DNA of 50,783 nt from Minisyncoccota bacterium (GCA_036517295.1 DATDWZ010000016.1:1-50783), one strand, 5' to 3'; shown: positions 28,021-50,783, counted from the first letter of the stretch. Notes: generated by a model from the letters alone, not told the origin. Program-made: numbers and translations.

Positions 28021-28134
28021 ATGAATCCCGTTAGAGATAACGGAAATCGAAAAAGACTATGGTCGAAGCATTAAAACATAATCAGTATAGGAATCATTAC
28101 AAAGTATGTGTGATTTCCTATCTCTAACGGGATG
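28021..28134 (+). mobile_element. Family A start-codon element, copy 1
   Basis: ATGAATCCCGTTAGAGATA...TATCTCTAACGGG-ATG; 15-bp perfect IR. Confidence 0.85.
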
Positions 28135-29466
28135 AAGAAAAATGTTACTCAAGATATTATTCCTCCAAGGAGATCTATCCAAAACATAGATTTTCCGTCC
28201 AGGTCAAAGCGTTTTAAAGAAAAAACCATAAAGGTCGAGTTAAGTAAACCACACACACCTCCTCCACAGGTTCCGGTTGAACCGGAGTTATATCAGTACG
28301 ACGAGCCACCGAAATATTCTAGAAAATTACTCTATATCGCTGCAACTCTTTTAGTTTTAGGTATCGCTTTTGCTATTTCAGCTTTATTCAAAAGCGCGGA
28401 GATTAAAATTGCCCCAAAACAGGAGATTCGTGTTCTAAATTCCGATTTCACAGCAAAGAAGAATGCGACTGGTACCAGCTTGGCTTTTCAGGTTGTGACA
28501 ACCACAAAAGATATAGAGAAAGTAGTTTCAGCAAGCACAGAACAAAAAGTCGACATAAAAGCTCGTGGCCAGATAGTTATATATAACAACTACAGCACCC
28601 AATCTCAGAAATTGGTTGCTACTACGCGCTTTGTCACCCCAGAGGGGCTGATTTTCAGACTGGTTAGTCCTGTTACGGTTCCCGGGCAACAAGTAAAATC
28701 GGGTAAGACGGTTGCCGGTAGTGTAGAGGCAACCGTGGAAGCCGATACTTCGGGAGAATCATATAACATAGGACTGAAAGATTTTACCATCCCGGGCTTC
28801 AAGGGTGATTCGAAATACACAAAAATCTATGCCAGATCAAAAACCGAAATGACGGGTGGATTTCAAGGACTACAAAAGATAATAACCAAGGAGGCTCTCA
28901 TAGTAGCCGACGCTCAAATGGAAAATGATCTGAAAGCTGGGTTGGCCAAAGATATAACTTCCCAGATTCCAGAGAACTTTATTTTATACGAAGAGAGCTT
29001 GTCTTATAAACTTGATCCAGCGACGCAAGTAAGTGCCGGTGTCAAGGCATCGGATCCGACCCAAGCCACTCTGAGAAAGAAGGGTAGAATCAGCGGTATT
29101 ATATTTGACAAAGGAGCTTTGTCACGCACTATTATTGCCAAAATATTACCCGATACTGCCGGAGATATGATAAAAATAACCAATCTAAATAAGCTTAATT
29201 TCACGATTAATCAAGCTGGAACTTTTGACTCGAGTACGAGTATTTCACTCGGTTTTAGCCTGAGTGGTGACGCTAACTTAGTTTGGATTTTTGATGAAAA
29301 CAAGTTAAAAGCCGATGTTCTGGGGTTATCAAAGAAAAATGCCATGGCTGTTATTAGCACCTACAAAACCATCAAAGAAGCATGGATTGAAACCAGTCCG
29401 TTCTGGAACAGCACCATACCGAAGGAGGCTAAAAAGGTTACCCTAGTAAATACCTTGACGAAATAG
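28132..29466 (+). CDS. Single-pass membrane protein with baseplate-J-like beta domain (CPR type)
   Basis: TM segment; KARGQIVIYN..QKLVATTRF..GESYNIG. Confidence 0.65.
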   Translation: MKKNVTQDIIPPRRSIQNIDFPSRSKRFKEKTIKVELSKPHTPPPQVPVEPELYQYDEPPKYSRKLLYIAATLLVLGIAFAISALFKSAEIKIAPKQEIRVLNSDFTAKKNATGTSLAFQVVTTTKDIEKVVSASTEQKVDIKARGQIVIYNNYSTQSQKLVATTRFVTPEGLIFRLVSPVTVPGQQVKSGKTVAGSVEATVEADTSGESYNIGLKDFTIPGFKGDSKYTKIYARSKTEMTGGFQGLQKIITKEALIVADAQMENDLKAGLAKDITSQIPENFILYEESLSYKLDPATQVSAGVKASDPTQATLRKKGRISGIIFDKGALSRTIIAKILPDTAGDMIKITNLNKLNFTINQAGTFDSSTSISLGFSLSGDANLVWIFDENKLKADVLGLSKKNAMAVISTYKTIKEAWIETSPFWNSTIPKEAKKVTLVNTLTK

Positions 29467-29532
29467 GCCTTTTTCTGCTACCATGCTATCTGTTATGCCA
29501 ATATGCCAATACAGAGTATTGGTATTAATATA

Positions 29533-29754
29533 ATGCAAGATCAGAACAAAAAAGATACTGCGATAACAGCACAAGTTACAGAGGCTCTACCAAACACTTT
29601 TTTTAAGGTAAAAAGAGACGACAATGGTGAGAAAATGTTGACATATCTTTCCGGGAAGATGAGATTGCATAGGATTCGAGTTTTGATAGGAGACAAAGTG
29701 ACCGTTGAAATCGACCCTTATGGGGGCAAGGGTAGGATAGTCAAAAGAATTTAA
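29533..29754 (+). CDS. infA: Translation initiation factor IF-1
   Basis: VTEALPN, LSGKMR..IRVLIGDKV; start could be 29503. Confidence 0.93.
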   Translation: MQDQNKKDTAITAQVTEALPNTFFKVKRDDNGEKMLTYLSGKMRLHRIRVLIGDKVTVEIDPYGGKGRIVKRI

Positions 29755-29758
29755 GGGA

Positions 29759-29894
29759 ATGAATCCCGTTAGAGATTATCGGGTTGATTTATAACGGATT
29801 AGGTGATATAAAGATGTGGTCTAAATTAATCATTTTATAAACATAAACTACGGAAATGCCTCTTCAGGAGGGATTTCCTATCTCTAACGGGATG
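29759..29894 (+). mobile_element. Family A start-codon element, copy 2 (before rpmJ)
   Basis: ATGAATCCCGTTAGAGAT...ATCTCTAACGGG-ATG; interior closely similar to copy 3. Confidence 0.85.
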
Positions 29895-49293: not shown

Positions 49294-49426
49294 CCCGTTA
49301 GAGATAGGAAACCCTTCCCGAAGAAGCGTTTCCGTCCGTGATAATTAATTTGTAAAATTTTTCGACCATTGTGATTAAATAAATAATGACTGTTAGACAA
49401 ACTGATTGATCTCTAACGGGATTCAT
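49291..49426 (-). mobile_element. Family A start-codon element, copy 5 (before murG)
   Basis: Minus strand ATGAATCCCGTTAGAGAT...ATCTCTAACGGG-ATG. Confidence 0.85.
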
Positions 49427-49430
49427 ATCC

Positions 49431-50531
49431 TCAGCTTTTTTTCATACTCTTTGATATGTTCAAAATCATTCCGACTTCAACCAGGGTGACAAACAAAGCC
49501 GTCCCGCCATGACTGACAAATGGCAAGGTTATGCCTGATAAAGGCAAAACGCCCACCATGGCTCCTATATTCACAAAAGCTTGGGATACGATAAGTATAA
49601 CAATTCCAACGACAACAAGTCTACCGAATGTATCAGACACTTTTCCGGCAATTTTCAACCCCCGGAAAGAAAAAAATATGAATAGCAGTATTATGCCGAC
49701 TGCACCGACAAAACCGAATTCCTCACTAGCTACCGCAAAAATAGAGTCCCCTATCGGTTCAGGTAAGACATTGAACTTTTGTATGCTCTGACCGAATCCT
49801 CGGCCAAACATACCGCCCGATCCGACGGCGATGAGCGACTGTTGTATCTGATAACCGCTACCTAGGGCATTTTCCGAGGGATTGATGAATGTGTCGATAC
49901 GGCTCATGACATAAGGCTTGGTATATACCACGCCGACCAAACCTATGGCGCCAATAGCTATCGTGATTATTATATACCGCCAACCGCCACCACCTGCCAA
50001 AAATATTGCCAATCCGGAAAAAACTATAATTATAAATGTATCGGTATCGGGCTGATTCAAGAGTATCGTCCCGACTACACCGAGGATTATAATAAACGGC
50101 AAAAAACCGTATTTGAAAGTTGAGGCCTTGTTTTTCACTCTAGCCAACCATGCGGAGAAAAATATTATAAATCCTATTTTTAAAAATTCTGATGGTTGAA
50201 AAGAGAGGAACCCTAAACTAATCCAGCGTGACGCTCCGCCGTGGGAAAAACCAACCCTGGGGACAAAAACCAAGAGAGTGACAAGTATGGATACGATGAA
50301 CACGATAAGTGAGTATTTTCTGTATATTTTATAATCGGTACGCGAGGCAATTACACAAAAAATCAAACCACAAAAAAGTCCGAAAAAGGTCTGGTTGAAA
50401 GTCACCCCACTATACTTAACCACTTGTTTTGAAAGCAGTCCGAAAGAAGCCGAAGTGAAAATAGCGTAACCGACAATTATCAATATAGTCGTAGTTACAA
50501 GAAAAGGTATGTCGACTTTTATTTTTTTCAT
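49431..50531 (-). CDS. ftsW: SEDS peptidoglycan glycosyltransferase FtsW
   Basis: GASRWI..FQPSEFLK, QPD, GYQIQQS, DSIFAVASEEFG, TLPFVSHGG; upstream of murG. Confidence 0.92.
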   Translation of the reverse strand: MKKIKVDIPFLVTTTILIIVGYAIFTSASFGLLSKQVVKYSGVTFNQTFFGLFCGLIFCVIASRTDYKIYRKYSLIVFIVSILVTLLVFVPRVGFSHGGASRWISLGFLSFQPSEFLKIGFIIFFSAWLARVKNKASTFKYGFLPFIIILGVVGTILLNQPDTDTFIIIVFSGLAIFLAGGGGWRYIIITIAIGAIGLVGVVYTKPYVMSRIDTFINPSENALGSGYQIQQSLIAVGSGGMFGRGFGQSIQKFNVLPEPIGDSIFAVASEEFGFVGAVGIILLFIFFSFRGLKIAGKVSDTFGRLVVVGIVILIVSQAFVNIGAMVGVLPLSGITLPFVSHGGTALFVTLVEVGMILNISKSMKKS

Positions 50532-50782
50532 CCCGTTAGAGTTAGGAAACCCCTCAAGCGATTGTTGAGGTAGTGTTTACCCATACTGGATTTAAGAAAC
50601 GACTCTCTTGATCTAGCATCAGACTCGTTTTTGCACGCTTCGTAATAAATAACCTCCCATGGTTTGAACTTGTTTGTATATATTGATTTACCATCATTAT
50701 GTAGCTTGAGACGTTTCCGTAGGTCATTTGTACTTCCAGTGTACCATATGCCATTTTTCTTGCTTTGTAATACATATGTGTA
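50528..50782 (-). CDS. Small GIY-YIG nuclease, 5'-truncated by window, inside family A copy 6
   Basis: Hand translation YTYVLQSKKNGIWYTGSTNDLRKRLKLHNDGKSIYTNKFKPWEVIYYEACKNESDARSRESFLKSSMGKHYLNNRLRGFLTLTG*. Confidence 0.88.
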   Translation of the reverse strand, partial: YTYVLQSKKNGIWYTGSTNDLRKRLKLHNDGKSIYTNKFKPWEVIYYEACKNESDARSRESFLKSSMGKHYLNNRLRGFLTLTG

Positions 50783-50783
50783 G
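50529..50783 (-). mobile_element. Family A copy 6 (nuclease-carrying, before ftsW); left end outside window
   Basis: Right end TTTCCTAACTCTAACGGG-ATG matches copies 1-5. Confidence 0.75.

Follow-up and report, generated by a model that had tools for sequence, protein, structure and literature searches.

Inverted-repeat elements at gene starts

The window analyzed here (the whole stretch of 50,783 nucleotides; GCA_036517295.1, DATDWZ010000016.1:1-50783) is contig C16 of the genome of a Minisyncoccota bacterium, referred to as G000 (740,112 bp in 46 contigs, 41.9% G+C); throughout the text, C denotes contigs of this genome, G genomes, and L fetched loci. Between positions 28,021 and 50,783, six copies of an inverted-repeat element stand at the starts of an open reading frame (ORF) of 444 amino acids and of the rpmJ, rplQ, dnaJ, murG, and ftsW genes. 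The 10-mer CTCTAACGGG or its complement had 11 exact matches in the window, and when up to one mismatch was allowed, 2.05 matches were expected and 13 were found, the latter number being reached in none of 100 shuffles. Pairing of these arms delimited five complete elements of 105, 127, 130, 97, and 127 nt and a sixth one cut by the contig end, and in all six copies the right arm directly adjoined an ATG. The features are as follows (window coordinates, strand, description):

28021-28026, plus: duplicated gene start ATGAA and a constant T (gaaATGAAT before the left arm; the gene starts ATGAAG)
28027-28131, plus: short element of 105 nt, subfamily A, adjoining the ATG of the 444-amino-acid ORF at 28132
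29759-29764, plus: duplicate ATGAA and T, 4 nt past the infA stop codon
29765-29891, plus: short element of 127 nt, subfamily B, adjoining the rpmJ (L36) ATG at 29892
32622-32627, plus: duplicate ATGAA and T, 1 nt past the rpoA stop codon
32628-32757, plus: short element of 130 nt, subfamily B, adjoining the rplQ (L17) ATG at 32758
40939-40943, plus: duplicate ATGG and T (the 4-nt-plus-T class), before the dnaJ copy
40944-41040, plus: short element of 97 nt, subfamily C, with arms extended as GAGTTT/AAACTC, adjoining the dnaJ ATG at 41041
49294-49420, minus: short element of 127 nt, subfamily B, adjoining the murG ATG at 49293
49421-49426, minus: duplicate ATGAA and T of the murG copy, 4 nt past the ftsW stop codon
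50528-50782, minus: GIY-YIG nuclease ORF, 84 of its 95 codons in the window, running through the right arm, with a TGA that overlaps the ftsW ATG (ATGA)
50532-50783, minus: full-length element of which the contig end leaves the 3' 252 nt; right arm at 50532-50541, adjoining the ftsW ATG (50531)

A Pfam search indicated that the host ATGs are true N termini: L36 matched its profile in full (positions 1-38 of 38), the J domain of DnaJ began at residue 4, the MurG match began at residue 3, and L17 and FtsW were matched as well; no family was assigned to the ORF at 28132. An initial annotation, made from the sequence alone, had placed six copies directly before ATGs, with a second ATG located 111, 133, 136, 102, and 133 nt upstream of the gene ATG in the complete ones; all six were found at the genes that it named, and the distances matched exactly. 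Its reading of the left flank as a copy of the gene start (ATGAA and T in four copies, ATGG and T at dnaJ) held as well, and the joint change of both dnaJ arms that it had pointed out (GAGTTT/AAACTC versus GAGAT/ATCTC) proved to be a subfamily difference that is also seen genome-wide. It was right that five copies are complete, but the ftsW copy turned out to be the 3' part of a long, nuclease-encoding copy and not a truncated short one.

Number and placement of copies in the genome

The G000 genome contains 78 exact arms. When CTCTAACGGG was read on either strand, it was followed by ATG in 35 cases and by GTG in two, while the other 41 were mostly left arms of the opposite strand; for comparison, ATG occurs at 1.5% of G000 positions. 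Of the 35 arm-adjoining ATGs, 31 open ORFs of at least 60 amino acids and 27 open ORFs of at least 100 amino acids (rpmJ being one of the four short ones), compared with 23% and 16%, respectively, of all 22,452 ATGs in the genome. Allowing up to two mismatches, 46 arm pairs were obtained, 42 of which span 97-131 nt; the other four comprise a pair of 278 nt, a composite one, and two long ones (1477 and 2501 nt) that are probably spurious. A 98-nt pair at C32:6923 that is devoid of ATG flanks is probably due to chance or unrelated. The short copies are small, non-coding, and present in many copies; their lengths cover all three reading frames, and the frame opened by the upstream ATG of the copy at 28027 stops after 17 codons. 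A scan of G000 revealed no other inverted-repeat family adjoining gene starts.

A composite copy of 240 nt was noted at C24:11008-11247, at the start of a 152-amino-acid ORF. Its subfamily-B right arm is split by an interruption of about 110 nt that starts with CCCGAACCGC and ends with ...GAAATGAATCGGG and that appears to be another repeat inserted within the element.

The full-length form encodes a GIY-YIG nuclease

Translation of the ftsW copy yielded the C-terminal 84 residues of a GIY-YIG protein, in a frame that crosses the right arm. The 5' part of this copy is the end of contig C31, which supplies MNPVRVHTVMYYTYVLQ..., the window (at 50783) and C31 (at 4052) both stopping inside the same full-length element. 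The complete protein is encoded by the joined ends of C31 and C16 and, independently of any joining, by C22:19867-20144, where the 278 nt between the arms read MNPVRD...GFLSQTG* in frame with the upstream duplicated ATG, and where the upstream host gene stops at the TGA of the same ATGA. This 278-bp form, a GIY-YIG gene bounded by the same arms as the short elements and hence the candidate autonomous form, was absent from the initial annotation. Its terminal repeats are 12-14 bp long, with the consensus (A)TCCCGTTAGAGAT...ATCTCTAACGGG(AT). Full-length copies (≈278 bp) between the same arms were found in G000 and 15 other genomes, and all 16 aligned copies, one from each genome, end with ATGA, which is preceded by GGG in 14 of them and by GGT or GGA in two.

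The complete paralog matched the Pfam GIY-YIG family (PF01541) with E = 3.3e-20, and 1846 homologs were retrieved at E ≤ 0.001. Among the 120 homologs listed, most were either exactly 95 amino acids long or 86 amino acids long when called from Met10, and they were named 'GIY-YIG nuclease family protein' or 'putative endonuclease' from Patescibacteria or Minisyncoccia. The ends encoded by the arms, MNPVRD and RFLSLTG, are conserved among homologs, and the GIY, YIG, Arg, His, and Glu columns together with Met10 are invariant; judged from these sequences, translation of the nuclease probably starts at Met10. In the AlphaFold model (mean per-residue confidence score, pLDDT, of 82.5) both arm-encoded tails are disordered. 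The nearest solved relatives were the UPF0213 proteins BH0048 (1zg2; best sequence match, E = 2.8e-9) and EF2693 (1ywl), followed by the nuclease domain of Slx1; as folds, 1zg2 ranked first and Slx1 (6sei, 6seh) next, with root-mean-square deviations of 1.7-2.0 Å over 73-74 columns. UvrC and I-TevI were far behind as fold matches (I-TevI, E = 0.6). By sequence and predicted fold, the protein is thus a single-domain member of the Slx1/UPF0213 lineage, and it looks functional.

Target duplication, junctions, and orientation

The junctions were analyzed in 162 elements with exact arms, comprising those of G000 and those of loci fetched by a scan of named contigs of metagenome-assembled genomes (MAGs). 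The latter scan accepted only loci in which an ATG follows the right arm, and in this respect the sample is unbiased for the 32 G000 elements alone. The left flanks fell into the following classes:

Exact ATGNN repeat and T: 100 of 162 elements
4 nt and T: 10 of 162 elements
6 nt and T: 3 of 162 elements
Imperfect, mostly with one change: 45 of 162 elements
No T before the left arm: 4 of 162 elements

A T (before CCCG) precedes the left arm in 158 of the 162 elements, and every right arm ends in G. In elements with both ATGs intact, the two bases that follow ATG (NN) agreed between the flanks in 100 of 113 cases, compared with 53.1 on average and at most 69 in 10,000 shuffles. When AA was excluded, agreement was still found in 31 of 35 elements, including the AG, GA, TA, CC, and CG pairs. 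Tandem copies are split by exactly ATGAAT (e.g. L045, L068, and C31), and one full-length copy shows an 8-nt repeat. Since every duplication opens with ATG, this triplet belongs to the target; the data fit equally well a 5-bp duplication of ATGNN, with an element running from T to G, and a 4-bp duplication of TGNN, with an element running from T to A that supplies the A. The ATGRA sequence is preferred, as ATGAA or ATGGA makes up 88 of the 100 exact duplications but about 35% of ordinary gene starts. A census of G000 revealed 3962 ATGRA sites, of which 261 are located at first ATGs of long ORFs and 613 outside long ORFs, so that a share of about 30% at starts would be expected if loss of intragenic copies were the sole factor. 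In fact 77-89% of copies are there, and this excess may come from targeting, from harm done by the hairpin elsewhere, or from slower deletion at places where an imprecise loss kills the gene. The orientation of the elements is constant, since interiors of short elements matched in 135 same-sense pairs and only 7 opposite ones. The latter look trivial: three are the same element read on both strands, and four are 21-22 nt long and were taken to be stem sequence that pairs up with its own reverse complement in the comparison.

As GIY-YIG enzymes are classic homing endonucleases, we considered whether the element might be a free-standing homing endonuclease gene, with a break at a gene start being repaired from an occupied site via microhomology and the duplication arising as a by-product. 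Such a process would agree with a left junction that varies (3 to 8 nt and T) next to an exact right junction, with the NN bases that differ in 13 of 113 elements, and with the frequent occurrence of tandem copies and of full-length copies directly behind remnants, which fits element-templated repair. However, one genome has copies at 35 or more unrelated loci that have only ATG and 2 nt in common, and the nuclease, the fold of which is nearest to Slx1/UPF0213, has no DNA-binding domain of the I-TevI or Seg kind. Furthermore, rare NN pairs (AG, CC, CG, and TA) are copied faithfully, which mismatched microhomology priming would not do. We therefore regard homing as quite unlikely.

The constant bases at the junctions also suggested an intron-like removal from mRNA, with boundaries U|CCCG...CGGG|AUG, which would explain why essential genes tolerate the element. 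The T before the left arm and the G ending every right arm are what such boundaries would look like, and a homing-type nuclease gene in the loop of a conserved helix is reminiscent of group I introns. Yet the elements of 97-131 nt have unrelated interiors and no conserved ribozyme core, and an Rfam search gave no match at E ≤ 1. After such a removal, the flanks would read ATGNNT-ATG, and in the 4-nt-plus-T class the two ATGs would not share a frame; moreover, the ATGNN duplication is a signature left at the DNA level. Splicing is consequently the least credible explanation that we weighed, with hardly any probability left to it. Two further candidates were rejected by eye. An archaeal bulge-helix-bulge intron was dismissed because the flanks cannot form the outer helix. 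Similarly, GTTAGAG resembles GTTRRRY, the core of the attC site, but the half-site order of an integron attC-like site is reversed here and the host genes are not cassettes.

Folding of the ends and their diversification with the nuclease

The arms of the short elements form 12 bp, and each of the 12 positions is paired in at least 182 of 192 elements. In the terminal helix of the 16 full-length copies (14 pairs), 97.8% of cells are paired and compensatory changes occur in 8 of the 14 pairs; examples are TTAGAG/CTCTAA versus TACGAA/TTCGTA versus ATAGTG/CACTAT and an outermost C-G changed to T-A. A second helix is formed by the codons for LRKRLK, about 95 nt inside the element, and the codons for RLRRFL adjoining the right arm. 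Here, compensatory changes were detected in five pairs, all inside the coding region. In 4 of 16 copies, for instance, a synonymous change of AAA to AAG is accompanied by T to C in the paired column, which makes a synonymous CGT-to-CGC change in three of the four and a CAC codon in G154. The observed covariation was reached in 0 of 500 shuffles, and partners slid out of register were only 30-46% paired. Since the second helix is placed asymmetrically with respect to the ends, this arrangement points to a folded single strand (DNA or RNA) rather than to two equivalent protein-binding sites.

Subfamilies A and B keep the second helix, in A as a direct continuation of the arms and in B as a small hairpin beside the right arm. 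In the subfamily-A copy at 28027-28131, the 12-bp arms run straight into a GGAAAT/ATTTCC helix, and the predicted RNA fold has a free energy of -36.4 kcal/mol (z = -6.3). In the rpmJ copy, the inner hairpin GGAAATGCCTC...GAGGGATTTCC lies beside the right arm, while in the murG copy this hairpin carries a UUCG-type loop. Overall, folds of the short elements are much more stable than those of shuffles (z = -3.7 to -6.6). A promoter and terminator scan gave no promoter-like site within the elements; the inner hairpin of two subfamily-B copies matched a loose terminator pattern, which is a consensus match only. Judged by sequence, then, the short copies of 97-131 nt are non-coding derivatives resembling MITEs (transposable elements of the miniature inverted-repeat kind), which keep the repeats and, in A and B, the inner helix.

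The repeats change together with the nuclease. Distant nuclease clades (45-51% identity) are bounded by quite different repeats (CCCRGTAGTGAA..., TCCGCACAC..., and GCCACACCTC...), and five of six readable right ends in them adjoin an ATG. When repeat types were mapped on the protein tree, 16 changes were needed, compared with a mean of 23.6 for shuffled labels, and a count this low was reached in none of 200 shuffles. Supported clades are formed by the GTAGTGAA and TAAGAG types, and host taxonomy is not mirrored by the tree. This result speaks of co-inheritance only, because kin share labels. Sister families with the repeats CCCRGTAGTGAA..., TCCGCACACTAAC..., and GCCACACCTC... were noted at L020 (in G042, upstream of rplQ); at L189, L227, L228, and L230; at L229; and at L186. 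They enclose a more distant GIY-YIG ORF or are short derivatives, and most of them adjoin an ATG; in L230 a TGA follows the right arm, and L227 also contains a 30-nt mini-hairpin made of arms only.

Presence and absence among relatives

In the same genus, 27 of 30 loci show a single ATG and lack the arm at the rpoA-rplQ junction, and 25 of 29 lack it at the infA-rpmJ junction, for which the last 80 nt upstream were read. The rplQ site of G009 carries another subfamily at the same ATG (ATGAAT...ATGAAT) and that of G042 a related element with other arms, whereas the rpmJ site is occupied by other subfamilies in G005 and G009 and by a remnant in G010. Presence and absence at these orthologous sites thus vary between species. 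The number of copies in 41 congeners was 35 (G000), 10, 9, 8, 8, 4, 3, 3, 2, 2, 1, and 1, with none in the other 29, while a reversed control pattern gave a single match. Twelve of 41 relatives have the same arms, among them members of four other families of the order, and so do at least 119 stretches of named MAG contigs; among the 80 stretches listed, 78 had titles of the Patescibacteria type or of unclassified bacteria, one was from Gammaproteobacteria, and one was from Ignavibacteria. Of 151 genomes belonging to the order, 96 encode the nuclease.

The same spacers are filled by direct-repeat arrays, of the ATTCGTA type or the TAAATTCTAAATT type, at L012, L027, and L214 (G017 and G019; rplQ and rpmJ) and at L040 (G044; rplQ), where they replace the inverted-repeat element.

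Given their stable folds, the short copies could in principle be host cis-regulatory RNAs at translation starts, acting as RNase III sites or AUG gates and kept for the benefit of the host. The 14-bp closing helix pairs the A and U of the host start codon, and structure at the start should matter, because G000 does not use Shine-Dalgarno sequences: 504 of 548 first-ATG ORF starts have no AGGA, GGAG, or GAGG within 20 nt, and the upstream regions are A/T-rich with no enrichment in G. In addition, copies reside at genes for ribosomal proteins, chaperones, and cell division, and the rplQ and rpmJ starts are occupied in several species. On the other hand, the same junctions have no arm in most congeners, the majority of which bear no copy at all, the interiors are entirely different between subfamilies, and Rfam contains no matching family. 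Mismatches in the arms are also evenly divided (17 of the G:T type versus 16 of the A:C type), giving no sign of selection on a sense RNA; over both helices of the full-length alignment the counts were 9 versus 4, and such counts carry little weight as a test for RNA function. A host regulatory function is accordingly very improbable as the reason for their presence. A purine-rich motif that seemed too near the upstream ATG would have implied that ATGAAT is brought in by the element; we dropped this idea in view of the motif-free starts just described.

A probable selfish element directed to start codons

Taken together, these findings led us to conclude, with a fair degree of confidence, that the six copies in the window belong to a selfish, start-codon-targeting family of mini-transposons that is spread across Patescibacteria (the candidate phyla radiation, CPR) and consists of an autonomous form encoding the GIY-YIG protein and MITE-like derivatives. 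The anatomy of the copies, their duplications, the presence and absence between species, the covariation of the ends, and the link between repeats and nuclease on which this conclusion is built are direct observations. The initial annotation had proposed a mobile element directed at translation starts that restores the host ATG, and each check that was run supported it, be it the enrichment of copies at ATGs, the empty orthologous sites, the agreement of post-ATG bases expected of a target-site duplication, or the Rfam search, which gave no match.

Several observations weigh against this interpretation. (i) The length of the duplication varies (4, 5, 6, and once 8), which is unusual for a transposase with a fixed stagger, and near-perfect inverted repeats do not usually go with a strict orientation. 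(ii) Of about 35 copies in G000, three are not at a credible gene start: that of C12 lies 22 nt upstream of the likely infB start, that of C44 lies 50 nt upstream of an ftsH-like gene, and that of C45 is unclear. (iii) The upstream ATG has accumulated 15 changes in 378 positions and NN 17 in 252, so it decays about as fast as NN and there is no sign of its functional retention. (iv) Stops or a frame shift prevent reading from the upstream ATG in at least 4 of the 16 full-length copies, which together with the invariant Met10 means that 'borrowing' of the host start codon is not essential, and other nuclease clades have an ORF that lies wholly between the repeats. (v) The role of the nuclease is deduced from its being the only gene inside the repeats and from its co-diversification with them. 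(vi) Within the genus, a strong nuclease match (E < 1e-30) tracks short elements weakly (4 of 7 genomes versus 7 of 33), and a better correlate is Y1_Tnp, which is found in 10 of 12 element-bearing congeners versus 11 of 29 without elements; the latter co-occurrence may reflect only genomes that are rich in mobile elements, and kin are not independent.

The last point brings up the most serious rival, namely that the elements are moved in trans by another enzyme (a Y1 HUH transposase of the IS200/RAYT kind) or by host recombination or repair, with the GIY-YIG protein as a passenger or homing helper. Four paralogous Y1_Tnp ORFs of about 225-233 amino acids are present in G000, outside the window (C4:12667-13347, C5:15645-16346, C18:1371-2048, and C35:575-1264). 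Hairpin folding and insertion in one orientation beside a short specific sequence are features of single-stranded DNA transposons, and short elements occur where the best GIY-YIG match is weak (e.g. nine copies in G005, 2e-16). However, each Y1 gene is flanked on both sides by a perfect palindrome of its own (CCCTAGGGGTACCCTAGGG or CCCAAAGGTTACACCTTTGGG) that is unlike the arms, and within 600 nt of these genes only distant arm-like strings (1-2 mismatches) were found, at two of the four. The duplication is clear here, while IS200/IS605 and REP/RAYT elements make none; G013, which is 97% complete, has three elements and no Y1 match; and repeats that lie inside the GIY-YIG frame and diversify with the nuclease clade are not expected of a passenger. 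Mobilization in trans therefore appears unlikely, if less so than the other alternatives discussed above.

The Y1 genes and their palindromes constitute a second, separate family of hairpin-type mobile elements, which was found in 21 of 41 congeners. Other recombinases in G000 are one rve-type integrase (C17:782-1045, within a 342-amino-acid open frame) and two tyrosine recombinases, and a profile search of this genome gave no DDE_Tnp_1.

Relation to known mobile elements

A search of open-access papers and bioRxiv, which also covered MITEs in the CPR, yielded no description of a start-codon element. By its architecture, the family is a transposon with terminal inverted repeats (TIRs) and MITE derivatives, and it has three unusual features: an Slx1-like protein as the sole gene, a start codon as the target, and repeats inside the coding sequence. 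It shares with MITEs and small TIR transposons, exemplified in bacteria by the Correia elements of Neisseria, a size of about 100-150 bp, TIRs, a short target duplication, many copies with varying presence and absence, a hairpin co-transcribed with neighboring genes, and a longer partner with the same ends. It differs from them in that this partner encodes a 95-amino-acid GIY-YIG nuclease and not a DDE, HUH, serine, or tyrosine transposase, in that the target is ATGNN of a start codon entered always in the sense orientation, and in that the repeats are coding. To our knowledge, no insertion-sequence family uses a GIY-YIG enzyme.

IS200/IS605 and REP/REPIN-RAYT systems depend on a Y1 HUH transposase and produce no target duplication. 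They resemble the present family in their folded single-strand hairpins, oriented insertion beside a short sequence, and derivatives of about 100 nt, and are distinguished from it by the duplication found here and by the Y1 genes of G000 having different hairpins of their own. Rickettsia palindromic elements are inserted in frame into coding sequences, and no autonomous partner of theirs is known. They are likewise short palindromic selfish repeats tolerated in or at essential genes of a reduced genome, but the elements described here stand before codon 1 and have an autonomous partner.

Free-standing GIY-YIG homing genes (T4 seg, I-TevI/I-BmoI), as far as the available portions of two papers describe them (PMC12774661, PMC3664794), are also selfish genes with a nuclease as the sole product, lodged between host genes and expressed with them. 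In contrast to these, the present family has no DNA-binding domain, occupies dozens of unrelated sites, and possesses inverted repeats, a duplication, and non-coding derivatives. The UPF0213 (BH0048, 1zg2; EF2693, 1ywl) and Slx1 proteins, minimal single-domain GIY-YIG enzymes, are the closest relatives in sequence and fold. Prokaryotic stand-alone Slx1-like proteins have been classed as probable vertically inherited repair enzymes and selfish GIY-YIG genes as derived from a UvrC-like lineage (PMC1564403), whereas the Slx1-like gene described here is repeat-bounded and multi-copy. Within the CPR, rRNA-gene insertions that contain GIY-YIG ORFs, resemble neither intron class, and have a scattered distribution are reported in the available text of another study (PMC11270868). 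They come from the same bacterial group and likewise combine a GIY-YIG ORF with a non-intron insertion and scattered occurrence, but they reside inside rRNA genes, that text describes no start-codon elements, and the likeness is one of description only. A further paper mentions GIY-YIG genes only among horizontally transferred ones (PMC12455944).

Proposed mechanism and its implications

Based on these data, we propose that the element inserts at the first bases of a gene, in the sense orientation, and duplicates ATGNN (usually 5 bp). Owing to this duplication, the host would keep an intact ATG after the right arm, and an upstream gene with an ATGA overlap would keep its stop codon. The ends might act as a folded single strand, in which the terminal repeats pair to give a hairpin or a three-way junction while the 15 nt beside the right arm pair with a stretch some 95 nt further in. 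The nuclease, presumably structure-specific like Slx1 and, by analogy with its fold neighbors 6sei and 6seh, acting on branched DNA, would then cut the folded ends and the target, and host repair would finish the insertion. Selection, together with slower loss at essential gene starts, would leave copies almost only at start codons. In family 1, ribosomes finishing the nuclease at the TGA of ATGA could restart on the host gene, and in short copies the host ATG may be used despite its paired A and U, either through melting of the helix by ribosomes coming from the upstream ATG or through processing of the helix. In its strongest form the proposal states that an Slx1-like nuclease of 86-95 residues is the sole enzyme of an unrecognized class of prokaryotic transposons, recognizes folded ends, integrates in the sense orientation at start codons, rebuilds the ATG, and couples translation via ATGA; we put this forward tentatively, rating its probability slightly below even.

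If the nuclease indeed moves the element, GIY-YIG enzymes of the Slx1-like type would join the short list of prokaryotic transposition catalysts, and the 'repair-type' stand-alone Slx1 lineage would include selfish members. An element of about 278 bp would then rank among the smallest autonomous mobile elements, and essential operons across Patescibacteria would be open to its colonization. Persistence of the repeats in streamlined genomes of 0.6-0.9 Mb could be explained by the fact that an imprecise deletion at a start codon loses the gene. The copies may also serve as a model for translation without Shine-Dalgarno sequences, since the essential genes are translated across a helix of 14 bp in which two AUG bases are paired, and a small nuclease guided by structure and site, with a defined partner DNA, may find use as a tool. 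For CPR genomics, it is of practical relevance that these repeats end contigs, create false starts at upstream ATGs, and yield 95-amino-acid 'putative endonuclease' annotations.

Assembly effects and minor observations

The repeat family fragments assemblies, as contigs from other runs break at short elements. When contigs of four DNA runs were compared with positions 31000-50783, none spanned an empty site cleanly; such contigs show presence and not absence, and hence do not bear on polymorphism. Repeat copies elsewhere in the metagenomes account for the joints inside elements and for the many loose ends at 32622/32762 and 49289/49427. Lone arm-like 10-mers with one mismatch and no partner, at 31569-31578 and 48064-48073 of the window, were not counted and probably represent chance matches or old remnants.

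Just past dnaJ, at 42126-42230, the window contains AT-rich, low-complexity short direct repeats (AATTTTCA, TTGTAAATTG). In the four metagenome runs, the summed contig depth over this segment was up to about 70 times that of neighboring bins, with many loose ends, which indicates that the repeat is common to many other contigs.

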